IMG/VR virus record: IMGVR_UViG_2593339199_000003
Coordinates: 1-64,000 of that record
Source of the DNA: a virus
Lineage: Duplodnaviria; Caudoviricetes
Length of the DNA stretch: 64,000 nt
Strand: one strand, 5' to 3'
Shown: one piece after another, positions 10,496 through 47,807 of the stretch
How the letters are laid out: each line of letters starts with the position of its first letter
Numbering within the stretch: the first letter of the stretch is position 1
The notes under the pieces: model-generated
Seen by the model: only the letters and a program-made list of their open reading frames with translations
What the model was told of the DNA's origin: nothing
Database searches by the model: none
Position numbers and translations under genes: made by a program

Positions 10496-11296
10496 TTACA
10501 CGCTTACTTTGCGGTCAATACGCGCATCCAAAATCGTATTCAGGAACAACAGGTCTGCGGGCGTCAGCTTCTCCTCTTTGACTTTCGCCACCCAAATCGA
10601 ATCGATCTGGCCCTTCTTGTTCGAATCGGTCATGACGGTCAACAACATAGCCCACTGCCATTTTTCGTACTTCAACGGTTCATACATATCCTCTTCCTCC
10701 TTGCCATAGTTTTTGTTCAAGCATGCGTGATACTCGAGTACGATGTCTTTGCGCAGCTGGTCATACGTCTTGCCATACCGCTTCAAAGCATTGACCGGAT
10801 CGGTCTTGCGGGCGGGATCCAGCTGGAAGTGCCCAGCGAATGCAGTTGGCGGGAAGTTAAGCTTCCAGGCCGCATAGGCTTGCACCCATACATAGCGCTT
10901 GTAGGCTTCTTCGAAGTCGATGCCGTCGCCGAAGCAAAGCTCCACGCCAATGGCGCCGTCGTTCGCGTCTTCACCAAACATCGCATTGTCCGTCTTTACG
11001 TTATACAAGACGTGACAAGCCTTCTCTGGAGCTGCTGTCAGCATCGGCACGCACTCGATAATGTGCTTGTCATCCACGAAGATGTGCGCTGCAGGATAGT
11101 TGCCCTTTGCCGTACGCTCGTAAAAATCGACGTTGTTTTGTGCGGTCGATCCTGCATTGCCAGTATCGTGGTTGACGCCGAATCGAACCTGCCCTTTCGG
11201 AATCAGAACCTTTTGACGGCGCTGTTCCTCTACACCAGCGTAATGTGTAAGGTACTGGGGCTCGATCTTGTACTTCATTAAGAATGTGTCGCTCAT
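10496..11296 (-). CDS. N-acetylmuramoyl-L-alanine amidase (Amidase_2), probable endolysin
   Basis: NHDTGN, AHIFVDD, AIGVELC, GHFQLDPARKTDP. Confidence 0.9.
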   Translation of the reverse strand: MSDTFLMKYKIEPQYLTHYAGVEEQRRQKVLIPKGQVRFGVNHDTGNAGSTAQNNVDFYERTAKGNYPAAHIFVDDKHIIECVPMLTAAPEKACHVLYNVKTDNAMFGEDANDGAIGVELCFGDGIDFEEAYKRYVWVQAYAAWKLNFPPTAFAGHFQLDPARKTDPVNALKRYGKTYDQLRKDIVLEYHACLNKNYGKEEEDMYEPLKYEKWQWAMLLTVMTDSNKKGQIDSIWVAKVKEEKLTPADLLFLNTILDARIDRKVSV

Positions 11297-11382
11297 GTGA
11301 CTTATCACCTCGTTTGATTGGATTCACACCGCCGCTCAGCGGTATGTATGGATTGCTTGGTCCCTGAGCGGTTCCAACATAT

Positions 11383-12802: not shown

Positions 12803-15800
12803 TTAAGCGAAATCCACTTCCCAGTTTTCTATGGCCTGCGTGACGTAGGTGATCTTGTCAGCCAGCAGGTCCATCTTGGATTTGTTGCCGCGGATCTGAA
12901 CCTTACGACCCACCTGCAGGTCGGCGTAATGGTCTTTCCACAGCTTATTGAAGACCATGACGTTCACTTCATCCTCGGCCGTCTCGATCATGATGCGGCA
13001 ATGTTCGGTGCCCGTCTTCTTCGCCTTGAACGGCTCGACCTTCTGTACGATACCGGTCATCGAGACATCCTCTTTGCCGTCCGGGATCATCTCCCAGCGC
13101 GACTTCACGGACACACTCGCACCCAGGTATTCTTTCTCGAAGGCGAGAATGTCCCGCTTCATCGTCTTGGCTGGGATGTCCTCATACGCCTCGCCGCGGC
13201 TGCCGATGTACGTCCGCCAGTGCAGGTAGCGGTTTGGGTTCATCGTGCTGTCGAAGCAGCCTGACTTAATTAGCGCCTCAACCTTCGTCTTATTAACCTT
13301 CGAGCGGTTCACTTGGAACAACATGTGCTCCAGATTGTCATACGGCCGCTTGTTGGTGATCTCAATCACAGAGTCGCCGCTGATGCCGGCGATACTACCG
13401 AGGCCGTAGCGGATCAGACCCTTCCCTTTCATGTTCGGATCCGTATTCGGAATCGGTGTCCACGAAGCGTTGGACTGGTTGATGTCGGGCGGCAGGATAC
13501 GGATGCCCATTTCCTCGCATTCATGCATGTAGCCTACCGACTTTGGATTCCCGTTCTTGTCCTTCTTGCCCTCCGAAATGGTCAGCAGAGCGGCCATAAA
13601 CTCGGTTGGGTAATAACACTTAAGAAATGCGGTTTGGACGGAGAGTACGGCGTAGCAGGCGCTGTGAGCGTAGTTGAAGCAGTATTCACCGAACTTGATC
13701 CATTGCTCCTTGATGCGGAGCAGCGTTGCTTCGTCATAGCCGCGGCTAAGTGCTCCTGGAATGTTATCTGGCGCTTCTTCTGCATAGTCGTAGTCCACCC
13801 AAACAGTCGGCTTGCCTTCGGCATCGACCGGGATTGTTTCCTGCGTTGGATATTGCGCGATGCGCTGCTGCTGCATCTCTTTGTACGCCGCGGATCCGTA
13901 AATCATTAGGTCAATCCAGCGGTTCATGATGTCGTGCTTCTTTTTCGAGATCCCTTTACGCAACATGTCGGATTGGCCAGTCGTGAAGCCGCCCATAATA
14001 ACGGACGCTTTCATGATCTGCTCTTGATAGACCCAAACGCCATAGGTACCTTCGAGCACTTCCTGTAGCTGCGGGAATGGATACGTGACCCGCTCCTGTC
14101 CCCACTTACGGCGAACATAGGATGGGATCAGATCCATCGGGCCCGGCCGGCCGAGTGCCACGATAACCGAAATATCTTGCACGCTGTTCGGTTTCATGTC
14201 CGAAATGATTTTTCGATATAGGTCGGATTCGACCTGGAAGATACCGGAGAGATTCAAGGTATTGTAGATCTCGCTGTAAATCCTCGGATCGTTCAAGTCA
14301 ATTGCGTCTATATCGAAATTGATGAGCCCTGCATTTTCCATCGTCAGTTTAATAAGGTCAAGTGTGTCAAGCTTCAGGATGTCGAACTTGACCAGGAACT
14401 TCTCGATCCATTCCATGTCGTACATGGTGGTCGTGAGCCCCTCTTTATCCTTTCGGAGCGGGACTGTCTTGGTCAGCGGGATTGGCGAGAGCACGATGCC
14501 GCCGGCATGAACACCTTCCTGGTTGACATGACCTTCGAGCTTCAGCGCAGTTTCCCACCATTGCGGCCACATATTCGCATAGTGCTGAACGGCCTGCTCA
14601 GCAGCATGGGCCTCCGAAAGCTCGATGCCGGGCTTCTCTGGGATCGACTTTGCAAATACGTCCTGATCGGTCAGGCTGTAGCCCAGCGTCTTGCCGACCT
14701 TCCGGATGACCGCGCGTGCGGCCAACGTGCCATAGGTGCCAATCTGCGCGACGCGATCGGCGCCGTACTTCTGTTTCATGTACTCTTGGACGGCCTTTGC
14801 GCCCTCATAGGAGAAGTCCACGTCGATGTCCGGATAGCCGGCGCGCTCCGGATTCAGGAAGCGCTCGAACATGAGGTTCCATTCAATCGGATCGAGCGTT
14901 GTGATCTTGATCAGGTACGCCACAAGGCTGCCGGCTGCAGAGCCGCGACCCGGGCCGACGCGGTAGCCGTTGCGCTTCGCCCACTGGATGTAATCCGATA
15001 CGATCAGGAAGTAATCGGCGAAGCCCTGCTTGCAGATGATCTCCAGCTCATACTTCAGCTGCCGGGCGTATTGCTCTAGGTTGATTGGCTTCTTAAGCGC
15101 ATAGGTGAACAGCTCGTTCCACGCTTGCTTCTCCAGCTGCAGCTCTGCAGTGTCGCCCTCCTCGATCGTATACCGCGGGAATACTTGCGTCTTTGGCAGG
15201 TCCACATTGACGAGCTCGGCGATTTTGTGCGTGTTGGCGATCGCTTCGTCGTCGTTGACGATCTCCCGGATCTCCTGTTCGTCCTTCATCCAGAACTCGT
15301 GGGCATAGATGAGTCGGTCCTCGTCAGACACGCATTTGCCGATCGAAGCAGCCACGAGAACATCATGCGTCACGTTGTCTTCCTTGTAGGCGTAATGCAC
15401 GTCCGTCGTGACGATCTTCGGGGTGTTCGTCTCCGCAGCGAGCTGGTCAATCAGCGCGTTTAATCTAAGCTGGTCGGGGATTCGGGTTGCTTGCTTTTCG
15501 AGGTAAAACGAGTGAAACGTTTCTTTGCATTCTTGAATGAATGCTCGAGCATCCTCCAGACGCCCAGCAAGAGCCAGCCGACTGAACCAAGAACCCAGGC
15601 AAGCAGAAGTAGCAATGAGATCAGCACCCAAATTACGTTCACGAATAAAAGCAAGATCAGTGCGAGGATCGGAATAGAAACCGTTAAGATGAGCGTCTGA
15701 AACAATTTCATAGAGATCTTCCAGCCCCTTATTATTTATTGCGATCAATACCAGATGGTAGTTGTCGTACTGCAGGTAATCGTAGATATCCTCACGGAAT

Positions 15801-16279
15801 TGATCCAGCGTGTTGAGCTTCTCTTCCGGAGCGGCGTTTTCTGCCATGCTGAACAGGTCGAGTTGGCCATCACCAACCGGAGCAGCCATTTCAAGACCGT
15901 CTTCTTTCATGAGCAGTTCCGCCAGCAACTGACGGGCCATGACCTCGAAGTCCTGCGGGTTGCGTTCAATATGCTTGATGAATTGCTTGAGCGGCTTATC
16001 CTTGACGGCATACTTGTCCATCAAGGCGGTGCGCTTCTCTTTCATGAAATCGCCTTTCAGCAGGCGATCCTTTGTCATATAAGCCTCGCAGCCGGGAATG
16101 GGCTTGATGCCCTCTTTCTTGCAGGCCTTTATAAAACCAGGAATGGCACCGCACACACCGTGGTCGGTGATAGCTAGTGCCATGCTCCCGAGTTCTTTGG
16201 CCCGCTTCGCAAGCGTAGTGACTTGAGACAAGCCATCCAGCTGCGAAAATTCGCTATGCACATGAAGATGCACACACAT
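12803..16279 (-). CDS. dnaE: DNA polymerase III alpha subunit (DnaE type)
   Basis: PHP HLHVHSEFSQLDG and AITDHG; GPGRGSAAGSL; PDIDVDF; KFDIL; FNYAHSACY; C-terminal OB fold. AAAGGAG RBS before 16279. Confidence 0.97.
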   Translation of the reverse strand: MCVHLHVHSEFSQLDGLSQVTTLAKRAKELGSMALAITDHGVCGAIPGFIKACKKEGIKPIPGCEAYMTKDRLLKGDFMKEKRTALMDKYAVKDKPLKQFIKHIERNPQDFEVMARQLLAELLMKEDGLEMAAPVGDGQLDLFSMAENAAPEEKLNTLDQFREDIYDYLQYDNYHLVLIAINNKGLEDLYEIVSDAHLNGFYSDPRTDLAFIRERNLGADLIATSACLGSWFSRLALAGRLEDARAFIQECKETFHSFYLEKQATRIPDQLRLNALIDQLAAETNTPKIVTTDVHYAYKEDNVTHDVLVAASIGKCVSDEDRLIYAHEFWMKDEQEIREIVNDDEAIANTHKIAELVNVDLPKTQVFPRYTIEEGDTAELQLEKQAWNELFTYALKKPINLEQYARQLKYELEIICKQGFADYFLIVSDYIQWAKRNGYRVGPGRGSAAGSLVAYLIKITTLDPIEWNLMFERFLNPERAGYPDIDVDFSYEGAKAVQEYMKQKYGADRVAQIGTYGTLAARAVIRKVGKTLGYSLTDQDVFAKSIPEKPGIELSEAHAAEQAVQHYANMWPQWWETALKLEGHVNQEGVHAGGIVLSPIPLTKTVPLRKDKEGLTTTMYDMEWIEKFLVKFDILKLDTLDLIKLTMENAGLINFDIDAIDLNDPRIYSEIYNTLNLSGIFQVESDLYRKIISDMKPNSVQDISVIVALGRPGPMDLIPSYVRRKWGQERVTYPFPQLQEVLEGTYGVWVYQEQIMKASVIMGGFTTGQSDMLRKGISKKKHDIMNRWIDLMIYGSAAYKEMQQQRIAQYPTQETIPVDAEGKPTVWVDYDYAEEAPDNIPGALSRGYDEATLLRIKEQWIKFGEYCFNYAHSACYAVLSVQTAFLKCYYPTEFMAALLTISEGKKDKNGNPKSVGYMHECEEMGIRILPPDINQSNASWTPIPNTDPNMKGKGLIRYGLGSIAGISGDSVIEITNKRPYDNLEHMLFQVNRSKVNKTKVEALIKSGCFDSTMNPNRYLHWRTYIGSRGEAYEDIPAKTMKRDILAFEKEYLGASVSVKSRWEMIPDGKEDVSMTGIVQKVEPFKAKKTGTEHCRIMIETAEDEVNVMVFNKLWKDHYADLQVGRKVQIRGNKSKMDLLADKITYVTQAIENWEVDFA
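15460..15711 (-). CDS. Overprinted 83-aa membrane protein inside dnaE (same strand, +1 frame)
   Basis: About 50 hydrophobic residues plus K/R tail; dnaE third positions switch to T over this span; AAGGGG/GGAAG upstream. Confidence 0.7.
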   Translation of the reverse strand: MKLFQTLILTVSIPILALILLLFVNVIWVLISLLLLLAWVLGSVGWLLLGVWRMLEHSFKNAKKRFTRFTSKSKQPESPTSLD

Positions 16280-16292
16280 GAGCCCGTCTCCT

Positions 16293-16610
16293 TTATTGCT
16301 CCGAGCTGCCCTCACCGATCAGCTCAAGAGTTTTGATTTCACCGATCGACGCAGAATCGTACTTCGCTCTTGCCCGGTCCAGGCGGCTGATAATCGTGCT
16401 GGTTTGCACGGCCGAGCCGATGATGATCGTTCCCTTTTGGTCGGAAGACACGATCACAGAGCGCGTTTTCTTGCCTTGCGTCAGGTCAATGTAGCGGCCT
16501 TCCTCTTTGGCCTTTTGAGCCATCCGACGAATCGGAGAAGAATCCGGCCGGCTAATTGTCACGATTTTGTTTGCTTCAACGTAGTTAGAAAATCCAACGT
16601 CAACGTACAT
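16293..16610 (-). CDS. remA: RemA-like (DUF370) extracellular matrix/biofilm regulator
   Basis: VGFSNYVEANKIVTISRPDSSPIRR..IDLTQGKKTRSVIV..IIGSAVQTSTIISRL. Confidence 0.88.
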   Translation of the reverse strand: MYVDVGFSNYVEANKIVTISRPDSSPIRRMAQKAKEEGRYIDLTQGKKTRSVIVSSDQKGTIIIGSAVQTSTIISRLDRARAKYDSASIGEIKTLELIGEGSSEQ

Positions 16611-36634: not shown

Positions 36635-36919
36635 TTAAGCCTTCGCTTCTGCGGACTTGAAGATGCCGACCAAGTTGTAGAATTTGACGGCAATATCGAT
36701 GCAGCGTTCGGCGATCGCCATAACGTACTCCTTGGATACTTCCATCGTCATGACTTTAGCCAGCTCGTCATAAGCGCCGGCAACCGAATCGAGCACGGCT
36801 TGCTTCTTCGCGTCGCCATTGCCATCGACCTCGAAAGCTTTGACCAGTTCCAGGACCAGGATCAGGATGCCCGGCGTAACGGTCAGGTACTGCAGGATAG
36901 ATTTAAGCTTCTTGCTCAT
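36635..36919 (-). CDS. Holin-like protein (LL-H type pattern)
   Basis: One hydrophobic helix, then GDAKKQAV..IDIAVKFYN. Confidence 0.5.
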   Translation of the reverse strand: MSKKLKSILQYLTVTPGILILVLELVKAFEVDGNGDAKKQAVLDSVAGAYDELAKVMTMEVSKEYVMAIAERCIDIAVKFYNLVGIFKSAEAKA

Positions 36920-37424
36920 CGTCTCCACTCTCCTTTTTACTTCTGGTGCGCGATGAAGTCGCGCGTTTTTGCTTCGCGTTGATTTCCGACTGAACGCTCT
37001 TGATGATGGCTTTCGGTATCCATTTCTCCCATCCGGCGCGGACGGAGTTTGCGGTTAAGCTGTTCCAGGTATGAAAGATAAGGCCGGATGTGACGCCGTA
37101 AAAGAAGACGCCTGGAGTGTGAAAGACGAAATCCAGCATATTAGCTGCTGCCGGGAAACATAGGATGAAGATCGTCCGGAGAATACCATTGATCCCGTAT
37201 TCAGAAGCATAGCTGCCGTCCTTTTTGGAAGCTGCGACACCGCTGATCCAATCCATAAAGATGAAAAATGCATAGATTCCGATTAAGGACATTCGGTCCT
37301 CCCCACTCCCGTAAATAACTTCAGCCCCTGATCCGATAAGGGCACCGAGCGCAGCGATGACTAGCTTTACGGGCGTGACGATGCTTTCGACATCAAAGGG
37401 TTTGTTGGTGATAAAACGCTGCAT
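36903..37424 (-). CDS. Phage holin (toxin secretion/phage lysis holin family)
   Basis: FIFMDWISGV.AS....SEYGINGILR..SLTAN; several TM segments and basic tail. Confidence 0.85.
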   Translation of the reverse strand: MQRFITNKPFDVESIVTPVKLVIAALGALIGSGAEVIYGSGEDRMSLIGIYAFFIFMDWISGVAASKKDGSYASEYGINGILRTIFILCFPAAANMLDFVFHTPGVFFYGVTSGLIFHTWNSLTANSVRAGWEKWIPKAIIKSVQSEINAKQKRATSSRTRSKKESGDDEQEA

Positions 37425-42681: not shown

Positions 42682-45600
42682 TTAAACTGGAGTCAAAGAA
42701 CCACGTTGTTCTTTCCTTATTGTAATGTCTGACAATGTGGTTTGACCAGGATTTTTCAAATTAATATCGCAGATGATCATATACTGCTGCGTCCAGGTTG
42801 CCTTATCCAAGGCAATCGTTTTTAGCAACGCACCATTCGCCGCATTGATAATCTCAACCTGCGGATCTTTGTCCAGATCATCGATCTGCGCCATGGCGTA
42901 CCGGTCCACGACGAGCGTAAGCTTGCGACCGACGAAACCGTCAATCGTGATGATCTCGACCTCATTGTCCCAGGCGGTCGCCGCGGTATGGCTCGTATAG
43001 TCGAAGTTCAAGTAAACGGCATCCGCGCCCTCCTGATAGACGTGATATGTCGCGCCACTGATTGTGACCGTTGGCGAGTTGTAGGCGACATGCTTGGTTA
43101 CGTCTTTGTCGATAAAGGCATGAAGGTCGAGATCGCAAGCGCCGCTGGCCCGGTAACCCCAGCGCAACCGGAACAGCATGTCATAACTGTTCTTAATCGT
43201 GCCTTCATCCGGGCTTCCCCCATCGGTCGGAGGCGGCGAGCAGTCGATGACATTGATGGCGATCGTAATCGACTTGGTTGTGCCGTCCGGACTGGTCGCC
43301 GTAATGACCAGATCGCCGGAGTTGAGCTCGCCGGCATCGTGAGAAATTTCGCCTGAGATGCTGGCGAGCTGCGAGCCGTAGTCACCGAGGATATCCACGT
43401 ACTGGCCGCCGGTCGCGTCCACCAGTGGCTTCAACTGATCCATGACCGACGCATTCGTGGATGCTGTTGGACCGATCACGGAAATCTTGATGCCGCGGCC
43501 TTGGCATGCGCTTGCGACCTCAGCAACCGTATAGGCGCCACCATCGCTTGTGGTATGCACGTGGGCGTCGGTTAGCATGATGATGTACTTGGCCGCATTG
43601 CTACGGAAGTCGAAGCTGAGCGCCCCGTTCGTGCCGTCCATAATCCCTTCGAGTCCGGACTCCGGTTCATCGCCGCCACCACCCACGAGAATGTATTGAA
43701 GCTGCGTCTTGAACAGATCCTTGTTCGTCGTATAATCATTCTTGAAGAGCCGCTCCCCGTAGGTCACATCGCCGAACTGAACCAGGCCGAGGCGGTAATC
43801 TACGCCATCATTGGCAAGCCGTGTGATGAACGCATCCAGGTTATTGGCCACGTTTGTGATGTAGCTCGACATGGATCCGGTATAGTCCACAAGGAAGATG
43901 ATGTCGGCTTTGCCACCAATCGTTGCTCCGCCATCAGTGCCGAATGCAGTCGCCGGGATCGTGAACGCGAAATCCTTATGCGTCCCGCTCCCCGTTCCCG
44001 CATACACCTCCTCGCCGCGGTACGTGGCATTGACCGTCGAAACGCTTGGGTAGATGTCCGCATAGCCGGCAATATTTAGCGGCTCGTTGTTGCACTGTGT
44101 GAGCGAGGTTGGGTCCGCCGATGGAGCCGTCACATGCAGCTCGGGAACCGGGTTCACACCCGTTTCGGGATCGGAGTTATGCGAGCTGTCGATAGGACAC
44201 ACCTGCGACGTGAAGACATCGTAATGCTTGCTGACCACGAAGTCCCCACTTTTGCCGATGCATGGTGCATTGGCATAGTTGCCAGTGACCACCTCGGAAA
44301 TCCATGGCAGATCGCCGATGGCTTTCGGACCACCTTTCATCCACTCCGTATTCTTCGCGCCGGCCGATTTAAAGTTGAGGTTGGTCGCCCATGCCGTCTG
44401 CACGACATCGTAGAAGTCTTTGAACATGACGCCGATTCCCGTCACCTGCAGGTTTGTCTGTCCGGTGCCATTCTTCACCATGACGGATACGCCTTTGAAA
44501 TAATCCGACCAGCCCACGACCACATCAATCGGGCCAGCCTTGGACTGCACCGTGATTTGCTCCGTCACAAGCCAGGACAGCGGCACGATGACTGTCTCCA
44601 GATCATTCGTGATGTCGCTATAATACTGGAACGCCACCTTATCCAGCAGCAAGCAGTTGCGAACCGGATTTTTGGTTGGATCATACGGCTCGACCGGTGG
44701 CTGCGTCGGATCATTCGGTGTCGTCTGGCCCTCATCCGGATTCAGGAGCTGCTTATTGATTGGACACTGGTTGATGTTCCAATTGCCGCCGAATGAGAAG
44801 TTCACGTAATCGTTAAGCGATCCAATGCTCGGGCTTGCCGAGTAATCGCCATTGTTTATGATCGGCTTCGTCCAGTTGTCCGTCGTCTTGGTCGAACCAT
44901 CGCCAAGCATCAGATCGGCGTTCTTTACCCCGTCCGTCTGCTTAATGATGCTCGCAGCCCATGTTGTCTTGCTCAGGTTCTTCTCGTCCAGATAATTGAT
45001 GGCGATGGAGCTGAGCTGGAATCCATAGCCGGTTGTGTTCGTTCCTGCCTTAAACCAGGCGATGATGCCGTTGCTTGATCCCCAGCCGAAGGTCACCTTC
45101 GCGCCGTTGCCATTGTCGATTTCATACGGCAGCCAGTCGGATGGAATGTCGAGGGGGATGATCGCTTGCTGCGTCGCATCGAAATACTCGATGTGTAGCG
45201 AGTCGAACAGCAGGCAGTTACGGGCATTCGGTTCTTCATCGGCCGGCAGCTTAGTCGAGATCACGAAGCTGTCCGAAGCTTGGCGGCCTTGATCATCGAA
45301 ACCTTTTACCTCGACAGCAATCGTGTCACCCGCTTCATAGCCATCGGTCGGCAAACTGAAGCGGAAGGACTTCTCATAGCCCACCGCGGATGTAACCGTT
45401 GGCAGACTATAGTCGGTATGGTCCACTTCGGTTCCGTTGACGAACACGACCGCTTTCGTAATCGGATAGGCGCTATCAACTACGCCGAGGACCACGATAT
45501 CCTCACCCTTGGGTACGCTAGTTGGCTTCGGGCTGATCGTAACTTTGATCGGTTTGTCGCCTGGGTGTGGGTCGGTCGGGTCCGTTGGATCATTAGGATC

Positions 45601-45972
45601 ATTAGGATCATTAGGATCATTCGGGTCATTAGGGTCATTAGGGTCACTCGGATCATTCGGATCATTAGGGTCATTGGGGTCATTGGGGTCATTCGGGTCA
45701 TTCGGGTCATTCGGGTCTGTGCCCCCTCCTCCATTGCCCGGGTCGTTCCCGTCGCCGCTTCCCGGGTTGGAGCCCCCGCCCCCGGTATCATCTCCATTTG
45801 GATCAGGCGGCGTTGGCGGGAAGTACGGGATATCCGTATCTCCGCCGCCCGTGTCCCCGTCGTCTTGATTATCCGCCGCGCGCCGTGTCGATGCTTCCAT
45901 GTCGACTTCATCACCAGCGACATGTGCTTTAATGTTAAAGCTTTTCAGTATAGGGGTTGAAAACTGGTTCAT
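42682..45972 (-). CDS. Large putative virion protein with NDP linker, Ig-like and vWA domains
   Basis: GAGGAGG RBS and ATGA overlap at 45972; MIDAS DIIFLVDYTGSM, GGGDEPE, IMLTDA. Confidence 0.85.
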   Translation of the reverse strand: MNQFSTPILKSFNIKAHVAGDEVDMEASTRRAADNQDDGDTGGGDTDIPYFPPTPPDPNGDDTGGGGSNPGSGDGNDPGNGGGGTDPNDPNDPNDPNDPNDPNDPNDPSDPNDPNDPNDPNDPNDPNDPTDPTDPHPGDKPIKVTISPKPTSVPKGEDIVVLGVVDSAYPITKAVVFVNGTEVDHTDYSLPTVTSAVGYEKSFRFSLPTDGYEAGDTIAVEVKGFDDQGRQASDSFVISTKLPADEEPNARNCLLFDSLHIEYFDATQQAIIPLDIPSDWLPYEIDNGNGAKVTFGWGSSNGIIAWFKAGTNTTGYGFQLSSIAINYLDEKNLSKTTWAASIIKQTDGVKNADLMLGDGSTKTTDNWTKPIINNGDYSASPSIGSLNDYVNFSFGGNWNINQCPINKQLLNPDEGQTTPNDPTQPPVEPYDPTKNPVRNCLLLDKVAFQYYSDITNDLETVIVPLSWLVTEQITVQSKAGPIDVVVGWSDYFKGVSVMVKNGTGQTNLQVTGIGVMFKDFYDVVQTAWATNLNFKSAGAKNTEWMKGGPKAIGDLPWISEVVTGNYANAPCIGKSGDFVVSKHYDVFTSQVCPIDSSHNSDPETGVNPVPELHVTAPSADPTSLTQCNNEPLNIAGYADIYPSVSTVNATYRGEEVYAGTGSGTHKDFAFTIPATAFGTDGGATIGGKADIIFLVDYTGSMSSYITNVANNLDAFITRLANDGVDYRLGLVQFGDVTYGERLFKNDYTTNKDLFKTQLQYILVGGGGDEPESGLEGIMDGTNGALSFDFRSNAAKYIIMLTDAHVHTTSDGGAYTVAEVASACQGRGIKISVIGPTASTNASVMDQLKPLVDATGGQYVDILGDYGSQLASISGEISHDAGELNSGDLVITATSPDGTTKSITIAINVIDCSPPPTDGGSPDEGTIKNSYDMLFRLRWGYRASGACDLDLHAFIDKDVTKHVAYNSPTVTISGATYHVYQEGADAVYLNFDYTSHTAATAWDNEVEIITIDGFVGRKLTLVVDRYAMAQIDDLDKDPQVEIINAANGALLKTIALDKATWTQQYMIICDINLKNPGQTTLSDITIRKEQRGSLTPV
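45569..45717. repeat. 9-bp tandem repeat encoding (N/T/S)DP, about 16 units
   Basis: GGRTCATTV units; flexible linker. Confidence 0.9.
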
Positions 45973-47807
45973 GCACTTTCCTCCTCTGGCCGTTGAAACA
46001 AGATTCGGATCCGCAGGCTGTACACCGGATACTCGGATTCCAGATATCCGTCGCTGGCGGTTGCCTGGCTGGACTTTGATACTTGCTGTACCGTGTAAAT
46101 CTTCGGCGGCGCCGGCTCCCCACCGCTTACAAAGGGCTGACGCTCCAGCGGTGTGATCGGATGCCATGTCGAGCCATCATCGATCGACACAAAGTATTTG
46201 ATCCACTTGTACTTCTGGGATGGATCGTCGGCATAGAACGGCGCCGGAATATCCTCATCCACGGAGAGCGTGATCTTCTCGAGCGGCTTGTCGAAGTAGT
46301 ATGGCTCGGATACAATTTCGGCGGATTGCTCGTATTCGCAGGACCAAATCTCAATGTCCCGCACGCCGATGCAGTAACGCCAACCTTCAAAGCGTTCGAC
46401 GCCTACATCGATATTTTCGTTATTGATCGTGCGGGTTAGATTGTAGATGACGTCATCCATGGCGATTTGATCTTGATCGCTGCCGCGGAGCGGGTAGTTT
46501 GCATCCACCGATGCATCGCTAATCTTGACGTTGACGCCGAGATCCTGCAGTCCGATGACCGGTCCATTGATCCGCGGCTGCTCGGCGGCGTCCGTCTTCT
46601 TCGTGAGCGAGTCAAACACATAAGCTGTGCCGTCCTCGACCTGCATCTTCTGCTCGTAGTAGATGTGCCCGATGTCGGTGTAATACTTCGCCGGCTGCTC
46701 GAACAGGATCGAGATGACCTTGGCATTCTGCGGCGTGAAGATGAATGTGGTGTCCTCGTCCTTCTTGCTGGCGCTTAGTACCGACTTCGGTGCGTTCTGG
46801 CCGTCTGAGATCAACACGTCGCGAATGATCGCCGGCTTGGCGCCGTAGTTCGGCGGGGTGTACAGGTTCACGTTGACCTTATTGATCTGCTTGGCTTCCG
46901 GAAGCACGACCTGCATATGCAGCCGCAGTACGCCGTCCGCTGGGTCCTTGGCCCAAGAGAGTGTCTGGTTGCCGCTCACTTGATAGTCGAAGCCGAGGTT
47001 CTTAGCCACTTTCTGCTTATCAATATCTCGGATATTCACGAGCTCGTATTCAAACCAGGTGTTCGCGTTGCCGTCGAGCACCGCGCCATAATTGGCATGG
47101 CTGTTCTTCTGGCCAACGAACGCATACGTGTAATCGGCTTCTGTCAGTGAACTGCCCGGCGATACCGTTACCTCGTGGGTGTTACCGGGGAAGCCATTGG
47201 AGTCGGAGCCGATGATGAACTGGTCATAAGTTTTGTTCCCGATGACAATCGCTACCTGCGCATCTTCGGCCACGTTCGTCGCGCTTTTTTGCTGGAGTGT
47301 GACAGCACCGTTCTCGATGTGCGCCGGCGAGCCAACAATTCGGTCGAAATCGATCTTGTCCTGATTAACAAAATCGTTTCGATGAAACGTGATGCGGCCG
47401 TTGCTGGCCGCATTGGTTGTCAGCAGTTCCAGATCCTTCAGCTTGTCGGCGATCTGCGTGAACTGATTGTCGAGGATGGAATGCTGCACCTGATTGTAGT
47501 TGAAGTCGGCATACAGTGCCTTGCTCAAGATGTCCGCTTCCTGGAACATGATCTGCAGATCGCTCTGCAGCTCGTCCATCATGTTGTTGTAGTCGTCGCT
47601 CCATGGCGGCCCGTCAATCGGAGCCAGCCGGAGCTGCATCAATGGCTGCCCCATGCTGACGAAGAAATCTTGGAAGGATTGGAATACGCTCTTAATCAGC
47701 GAAGTGTCCGTCTTAATTGAGCCGTTCTCGAAGGCGGTCTTCGCTTTGTCGAACTGAGCCACCGCTTGCTGATATAGGAGCTGGGAGTTGTTTTTGAGAT
47801 TAGCCAT
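45969..47807 (-). CDS. Putative structural protein, paralogue family member
   Basis: GPPWSDDYN motif, coiled coil, LDGNANTWFEYE. Confidence 0.8.
   Translation of the reverse strand: MANLKNNSQLLYQQAVAQFDKAKTAFENGSIKTDTSLIKSVFQSFQDFFVSMGQPLMQLRLAPIDGPPWSDDYNNMMDELQSDLQIMFQEADILSKALYADFNYNQVQHSILDNQFTQIADKLKDLELLTTNAASNGRITFHRNDFVNQDKIDFDRIVGSPAHIENGAVTLQQKSATNVAEDAQVAIVIGNKTYDQFIIGSDSNGFPGNTHEVTVSPGSSLTEADYTYAFVGQKNSHANYGAVLDGNANTWFEYELVNIRDIDKQKVAKNLGFDYQVSGNQTLSWAKDPADGVLRLHMQVVLPEAKQINKVNVNLYTPPNYGAKPAIIRDVLISDGQNAPKSVLSASKKDEDTTFIFTPQNAKVISILFEQPAKYYTDIGHIYYEQKMQVEDGTAYVFDSLTKKTDAAEQPRINGPVIGLQDLGVNVKISDASVDANYPLRGSDQDQIAMDDVIYNLTRTINNENIDVGVERFEGWRYCIGVRDIEIWSCEYEQSAEIVSEPYYFDKPLEKITLSVDEDIPAPFYADDPSQKYKWIKYFVSIDDGSTWHPITPLERQPFVSGGEPAPPKIYTVQQVSKSSQATASDGYLESEYPVYSLRIRILFQRPEEESA

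Follow-up and report, generated by a model that had tools for sequence, protein, structure and literature searches.

A second reading frame lies open inside the gene for a DnaE-like DNA polymerase III alpha subunit in a 64,000-nucleotide stretch of viral DNA (hereafter the window), which is part of a 105-kb provirus record in IMG/VR (IMGVR_UViG_2593339199_000003). This open reading frame (ORF), in the +1 frame of the same strand, is considered, with a probability of roughly 80%, to be a real overprinted protein-coding gene that would be translated by internal initiation and whose predicted product is a membrane protein. Selection keeps the ORF, as seen in its conservation, in the signature of constraint that it leaves on dnaE, in its start signals and in its decay after loss. 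Translation, membrane insertion and topology of the product we infer from the sequence. The features concerned are as follows.

12803..16315, minus strand: host gene, encoding a DnaE-like DNA polymerase III alpha, recognised by Pfam PHP, DNA_pol3_alpha, DNA_pol3_finger and HHH_6 matches and by alignment with relatives
15460..15711, minus strand: nested +1-frame ORF of 83 codons plus TAA, lying over DnaE residues 202-285 in the PHP domain (ATG at 15711, TAA at 15460)
15556..15711, minus strand: hydrophobic core, nested codons 1-52, with T-rich, A-poor dnaE third positions and a deficit of charge
15463..15555, minus strand: basic C-terminal tail, nested codons 53-83, its charge set by the DnaE sequence and its length varying among relatives
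15717..15723, minus strand: Shine-Dalgarno-like UGGAAGA, ending 6 nt before the nested AUG

The ORF had been noticed in a preliminary description made from the letters of the window, which regarded it as a selected nested gene for a hydrophobic protein, accommodated by largely synonymous changes in dnaE; the comparative tests below bear this out. The reported translation is identical letter for letter, and the hand counts are exact, with 36 of the 55 dnaE codons from the nested ATG ending in T and 3 of 30 past the nested stop. Over the whole of dnaE 215 of 1171 codons (0.18) end in T, which gives a binomial p of 2.7e-16 for the patch against the rest of the gene, and the T-ending count of other non-overlapping 55-codon dnaE windows never exceeds 18. 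When all frames of the window that run for at least 250 codons without a stop, 47 in number, are ranked by the fraction of third positions that are T (T3; A3 and GC3 are used likewise), the peak of the patch, 33 of 50, is the highest and the runner-up reaches 27 of 50. Its GC3 is 0.23-0.27, in a gene with a GC3 of 0.69. The second codon base of the nested frame is the third base of dnaE, so that selection for hydrophobic residues makes the dnaE wobble T-rich and A-poor. Across the same patch the DnaE protein is among the best-conserved stretches of the gene, and it retains the PHP motifs that had been singled out earlier, YSDPRTD, TSACLG and FYLE, at residues 214, 236 and 270.

The second-highest T3 peak on the minus strand (27 of 50, at 45738) extends over about 45480-45923 in an ORF at 42682-46167 of that strand. 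It falls on a repetitive linker, whose shifted frame reads MTRMTRMTPMT..., and is probably a repeat effect.

The relatives of the window's DnaE were collected from scans of viral, genome and metagenome contigs together with tblastn, which defined a clade of 17 distinct sequences (19 rows including two near-copies). The clade is carried on elements of about 140-260 kb, several of them deposited as plasmids, with Paenibacillus rhizovicinus, P. urinalis, Bacillus thuringiensis, B. cereus G9842 (pG9842_140), B. paralicheniformis, B. licheniformis and B. halotolerans as hosts. Among the isolated phages in INPHARED, none is closer than 44%. The B. thuringiensis jumbo prophage pBtic235 (PMC9700832) was considered as a further member and rejected, as its size and accession are those of none of the 10 plasmid records that match the region.

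Ten of the 17 distinct sequences carry the nested ORF: the window, L004-L010, L084 and L188. These carriers are spread over deep branches, have DnaE proteins that are 55-91% identical in pairs and span GC3 values of 0.23-0.72; near-copies of them occur on named plasmids of P. urinalis, B. thuringiensis and B. cereus. All ten have an ATG at one and the same Tyr codon (TAT), followed by 59-100 open codons of the +1 frame; this is the conserved frame that the preliminary description had proposed to look for in related dnaE genes. The only frames free of stops in all ten are that of dnaE and the nested one. The carriers share a run of about 50 codons with T-rich, A-poor dnaE third positions, and their nested proteins, 35-60% identical to that of the window, follow one plan: M-(K/Q/R)-L, about 50 hydrophobic residues and a cationic tail. 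Outside the clade, 113 more distant DnaE loci have a T3 of 0.16 at this place against a background of 0.15, and just three of them are stop-free in the nested frame.

The wobble composition was compared with that expected by chance by drawing synonymous codons from each gene's own usage, with 3000 draws per sequence. For seven of nine sequences, none of the 3000 draws matched the observed T3 or hydropathy (T3 of 0.58-0.76 observed and 0.19-0.39 simulated). In the AT-rich pair L009 and L084 the frame was open in at most 0.07% of draws, and L188 has no stop where 3.2 are expected (27 of 3000 draws), its hydropathy being matched in 4 of 3000. The simulated chance of an ATG followed by an open frame is 0-15% per lineage. 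Averaged over nine sequences, T3 across dnaE codons 203-245 is 0.70-0.72 against about 0.26 elsewhere, and mean A3 across the core is 0.02-0.05 against about 0.25 elsewhere. Carrier by carrier, A3 in the core falls to 0.04-0.12 and T3 rises to 0.58-0.76; in the window, core A3 is 0.06 against a background of 0.12. The 450 third bases of the core comprise 297 T, 74 C, 47 G and 32 A, and this order, T>C>G>A, is that expected for the second codon base of transmembrane residues. Nested positions 3-50 contain 0-3 charged residues, against 5-8 expected.

Constraint is also visible in the divergence of the dnaE wobble. At identical DnaE codons, the third-position differences of 10 pairs are 0.08-0.44 in the core and 0.24-0.70 outside it; core divergence is the lower in all ten, strongly so in eight, when set against windows genome-wide, and modestly in two. 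For the window and L004 the values are 0.28 and 0.49, none of 173 other windows compared being as low; for L009 and L084 they are 0.08 and 0.24, and for the window and L009 0.39 and 0.70. Third-base conservation is 0.74-0.76 in the core against about 0.45-0.65.

The start of the nested frame is marked in the carriers by a Shine-Dalgarno-like site encoded by the DnaE peptide G-L-E-D-L-Y, which reads UGGAGGA in seven of the ten and UGGAAGA in three, the window included. The Leu codon inside this site ends in G in 10/10 carriers and in 1/7 non-carriers, and the nested ATG is present in 10/10 and 3/7, respectively. Duplex energies, computed with a generic anti-Shine-Dalgarno motif rather than one from this host's rRNA, are -9.3 to -10.4 kcal/mol in seven carriers (top 0.3-1.5% of gene positions), -7.6 kcal/mol in the window (top 4%), about -6 in L009 and L084, and -3.8 to -6.2 kcal/mol in the seven non-carriers. 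The preliminary description had listed AAGGGG, GGAAG and an AT-rich tract as signals before the ATG. Both purine motifs are there, but a promoter scan upstream of the nested start found no promoter-like site on the coding strand, so that the tract gains no support as a signal; translation from the dnaE mRNA is therefore the simplest reading. On the opposite strand, a weak sigma-70-like match (TTCATA-17-TATTAT, 9/12) lies at 15707-15735 (plus), antisense to the nested start, the region having two promoter-like matches where 1.4 are expected by chance. A type I toxin would be a small hydrophobic protein under the control of an overlapping antisense RNA; for such an RNA the region offers this weak match and no Rfam hit.

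The remaining seven members of the clade have stops in the nested frame. Four of them (L167, L168, L177 and L195) form a branch of their own, in which T3, A3, stops and hydropathy are all at the resampling null. L165 and the pair L182/L183, the latter being B. paralicheniformis pBP1 and a B. halotolerans plasmid, branch among carriers; each has a single stop in the frame, against an expectation of 3-4, and a residual hydropathy that 2, 6 and 60 of 3000 draws match. Close orthologues with stops in this frame that nonetheless keep the T bias, which the preliminary description had named as evidence against a selected gene, are thus not found, four being at the null and three retaining no more than a remnant of the hydrophobic signal. 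On a maximum-likelihood tree (quick search, LG+G4, Shimodaira-Hasegawa-like approximate likelihood ratio supports, SH-aLRT), the distribution of carriers and non-carriers needs at least three changes, most simply a single gain followed by two losses. The single origin would lie in the ancestor of two of the three clade branches or at the base of the clade. Since the gene has been lost repeatedly without replacement, it is understood as an accessory function. A relocated copy in the non-carriers was considered and rejected, as the sole profile match in four of five records (L165 excepted) is the disrupted frame within dnaE itself, which has 2-6 stops.

In L165 (region 1501-1950), another ATG comes directly after a +1 stop at codon 8 and opens a hydrophobic ORF of 49 codons, and A3 remains low at 0.14. 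This short ORF may be a truncated but functional version and not a dead copy.

The product is most likely a small membrane protein of one or two spans, which would arise by internal initiation on the dnaE mRNA. Hydropathy gives one unbroken hydrophobic stretch of about 48-55 residues, and the core would probably fold as a single long membrane helix or as two short ones. The charged FEKEVW interrupts the stretch of L188 at residues 23-28 and aligns with N, G, GP or P in the others. A helical hairpin is suggested, because about 48-55 residues are too long for a single span and a break falls at the mid-point. The K/R-rich, A-rich tail noted in the preliminary description is present, but it does not serve as a sign of selection: its net charge of +6 to +10 compares with +4 to +8 in simulations, is exceptional in none of nine sequences and is imposed by the conserved DnaE peptide FIQECKETFHSFYLEKQAT. 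Its length also differs among carriers, whose stops lie at codons 59-100, and ranges from 9 to about 50 residues. Because the charge is forced by DnaE and the length is variable, the selected unit is taken to be the first 50 codons or so.

Homology searches gave little for the nested protein. Pfam returned only sub-threshold matches to unrelated membrane families, and in PHROGs one of nine members matched a family of unknown function (E=0.001), one of nine matched a 'membrane protein' and none matched a holin family. A word search of 5.8 billion proteins with the nine-sequence alignment, at lengths of 41-175, gave no match, and the best score in the ESM Atlas, 0.78, was under the lead threshold. 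At the five plasmid loci opened in PLSDB, whose tables are incomplete, no annotated gene stands at the nested ORF. To our knowledge, no gene caller reports a gene that is nested out of frame, which accounts for the absence of the protein from the annotations and protein databases searched.

In the proposed mechanism, ribosomes would start inside the dnaE mRNA at AUG 15711, guided by UGGA(A/G)GA 6 nt upstream, and reading in the +1 frame would yield a protein of about 60-100 residues. The first 50 or so residues, which are almost purely hydrophobic, would enter the cytoplasmic membrane as an N-in/C-in helical hairpin with its turn near residues 23-30, and the short cationic tail would stay in the cytoplasm, on the same side as the N-terminal Lys. 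Hydrophobicity would be selected through the wobble bases of dnaE, with DnaE itself unchanged.

Several observations weigh against the reading as a translated membrane protein gene. The resampling null takes no account of context-dependent codon bias. T3 alone is weak for L009 and L084, being matched in 244 and 72 of 3000 draws, and the drop in third-position divergence is modest in the close pairs L010-L005 (0.44 in the core, 0.51 outside) and L006-L007 (0.44 and 0.49). At the identities given above for the nested proteins, hydrophobicity is kept but no specific sequence is, and the basic tail shows no selection over and above the constraint of DnaE. The Shine-Dalgarno-like site of the window itself is the weaker GGAAG form, and the mRNA near the start is barely less structured than the gene average (percentile 0.12-0.48), as in non-carriers. 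AlphaFold2 gives one continuous helix (pLDDT, predicted local distance difference test, of 84) for both 83- and 59-residue forms and no hairpin; the two-span protein of the preliminary description consequently has the length and the mid-point break on its side and the predicted structure against it. Lastly, the nested gene has been lost at least twice and is hence dispensable.

Of the rival explanations, the one that survives best holds that the frame is untranslated, the T-rich, A-poor wobble being kept for an mRNA or DNA signal or for tuning the speed of DnaE translation, and the open frame being a by-product. A +1 stop needs A or G as the third base of the dnaE codon and can never be made by T, so that a T-rich wobble by itself removes such stops and openness goes with T-richness. 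Yet the pattern is T-specific across the whole GC3 range of the carriers and so does not track codon rarity, and the base excluded is A, the base of polar residues. The wobble bias ends where the hydrophobic core ends, no Rfam family covers the nested region, and carriers retain the ATG and the Shine-Dalgarno-like site together, where non-carriers have them in weaker form or not at all. A nucleic-acid signal is accordingly regarded as unlikely.

Programmed frameshifting, by which the first 200 or so DnaE residues would be fused to a membrane segment and no free small protein made, is a still less probable account. In every carrier 9-12 codons of the +1 frame stand open ahead of the ATG, as such a fusion would need. 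However, those 9-12 codons are the whole of the usable window, as in-frame +1 stops lie shortly upstream in every carrier; the sequence there differs among carriers and offers no shared slippery motif, and neither the ATG conserved in 10/10 nor the Shine-Dalgarno-like site would be needed.

A recombinant patch from a low-GC donor, which the preliminary description had itself named as a refuting explanation and which the locally low GC3 might suggest, or an ORF arisen by chance, is scarcely credible, as A3 is depleted while T3 is enriched, the same codons are affected in 10 diverged relatives including AT-rich ones, the DnaE protein is so well conserved here, 0.28-0.44 synonymous differences inside the patch speak against a recent shared recombinant, and the per-lineage chance of an ATG with an open frame is as low as given above.

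For the nested gene as a translated membrane protein gene, suggestions about its role are tentative. Superinfection exclusion of the T4 Imm type blocks the DNA entry of a second phage, and early membrane protection or exclusion of this kind is put forward as a possible role, with low confidence; the PHROG and 5.8-billion-protein searches showed no homology to support it. A holin- or antiholin-like factor in lysis timing is somewhat less probable and stands level with a different role altogether, such as that of a toxin; a membrane tether for the replication machinery would be less probable again. The genes of the window that bear on a role in lysis are the following.

10496-11308: Amidase_2 gene, 1.5 kb downstream of dnaE and 4.2 kb downstream of the nested gene, the only one found
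36903-37424: Phage_holin_4_1 gene, 21 kb from the nested gene and 26 kb from the amidase, with no recognisable lysin adjoining

In pG9842_140, a Phage_holin_1 gene lies 4 kb upstream of dnaE. As holin-family genes exist elsewhere on these elements, the nested protein is not the sole holin candidate. Holins make lethal lesions in the membrane through which the endolysin is released, and as a class they are small proteins with transmembrane helices and a charged C-terminus, encoded beside the endolysin. The size and hydrophobic helices of the nested protein fit that class; its tail charge is forced by DnaE and the amidase is not adjacent. The lysis genes are dispersed in the window, and the order of dnaE followed by a hydrolase gene is kept across the clade. 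A link between the nested gene and the type of the downstream hydrolase was considered, given that an amidase is found in carriers and a GH25 enzyme in pBP1 and in the plasmid of B. halotolerans, and was rejected, the non-carriers G001 and G002 also having Amidase_2.

Among known overprinted genes, the closest in form is the lysis gene E of phiX174 (Microviridae), lying inside the scaffold gene D. The T-rich wobble of D supplies the second codon bases of E, from which a Leu-rich transmembrane domain results (PMC8227390); E is reported to inhibit MraY (bioRxiv 10.1101/2023.10.16.562596). The nested ORF is likewise a fully embedded same-strand +1 gene, with a T-rich wobble in the older gene and, as its predicted product, a protein of about 90 residues with a Leu-rich transmembrane segment. 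It differs from E in having no sequence similarity, in a hydrophobic run of about 50 residues rather than one span of about 20, and in its setting, which is a replicative polymerase gene on a double-stranded DNA phage-plasmid of more than 100 kb. A sole lysis gene of the E type does not fit an element of at least 105 kb with Amidase_2 and holin-family genes, and a single-gene lysis role is needless because the phage-plasmid has its own holin-family gene and amidase.

The o-spanin gene Rz1 of lambda lies out of frame and wholly within Rz, and encodes a lipoprotein that works with Rz in Gram-negative hosts. The nested ORF resembles Rz1 as an out-of-frame gene inside another phage gene with a small product, here predicted, that is targeted to the envelope; unlike Rz1, it belongs to Gram-positive hosts, has no lipobox and lies in a gene unrelated to lysis. 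Class II holins and pinholins are small proteins in which two hydrophobic helices are predicted and the cationic C-terminus lies in the cytoplasm. The nested protein shares with them its small size, hydrophobicity and cationic C-terminus, and two helices are suggested for it, but it has no Pfam or PHROG holin match, no lysin is adjacent and its tail charge is a by-product of DnaE coding.

In Escherichia coli, the microprotein GndA is encoded out of frame inside gnd and is reported to recruit the enzyme that the primary ORF encodes (bioRxiv 10.64898/2026.10.22.760973). GndA is a precedent for the replisome-tether idea, being a microprotein out of frame in an enzyme gene; it comes from a bacterial chromosomal gene and has no homology with the nested protein. 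In the open-access papers searched, no description of a nested gene in a phage dnaE was found.

The host gene has 1170 codons in its longest version, which opens at GTG 16315; the true start is likely the ATG at 16279, which matches the start of relatives (MC.H.HLHVH). The gene order of the clade runs S8 peptidase, RusA, a regulator, a Cas4-like nuclease, a RemA-like protein, dnaE, one to four small genes and a cell-wall hydrolase. In the window the RemA-like gene (16293-16610; PF04025, E=6e-22) is directly upstream of dnaE, and a RemA-family gene is at the same place in 6/6 plasmid relatives opened, under a DUF370 label in one. At L002:2507-3738, on the same contig as L006, dnaE is broken after ...ERAGYPD by an insert of about 1.2 kb, which contains a 278-residue ORF with LAGLIDADG-like motifs and matches an Rfam group I intron at 38.7 bits (E=6e-08), under the gathering score. 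The dnaE frames of L188 and L195 likewise stop near residue 500.

A second, non-homologous +1 ORF was found in the outgroup loci L014-L034 and L074-L078, which are viral contigs whose DnaE is about 33% identical to that of the window. Its 99 codons without a stop lie over DnaE codons ~702-801, overlap the motif FNRSHAVAYS...YYPLEFM of DnaE and encode a hydrophobic run of about 35 residues. One criterion finds it at 19 loci, and a pattern match that missed some finds it in 14 of 25, adding three loci; in these 14, T3 is 0.64 against 0.39 and A3 is 0.03 against 0.32. The two apparent births would have taken place at different DnaE sites, codons 202-285 here and ~702-801 in the freshwater-type group, in clades about 33% identical. 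That phage DnaE repeatedly gives birth to +1 membrane microproteins which work with the polymerase, as a tether or in envelope coupling, with two independent births, is a speculative and rather improbable proposal, and the outgroup set consists of dnaE loci only, so that recurrence in dnaE may reflect sampling.

The nested ORF is a predicted and unannotated instance of an overprinted phage gene for a small membrane protein. If real, it would be an unusually clean case of de novo gene birth in a large double-stranded DNA phage-plasmid, in which the ancestral frame, that of DnaE, is certain and the birth can be placed on a tree, with its stages side by side: intact, recently lost with a fading signal, and never present or lost long ago. 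Cultured strains hold several of the carrier plasmids, among them P. rhizovicinus 14171R-81 and B. thuringiensis strains with plasmids of 141-260 kb, which makes genetics feasible. With the gene, the replication module of a little-studied lineage of ~200 kb phage-plasmids in Bacillus and Paenibacillus would gain a membrane component, and together with the second +1 ORF it raises the question of whether the overprinting of polymerases by membrane microproteins recurs for a function, or only since long conserved genes offer room.

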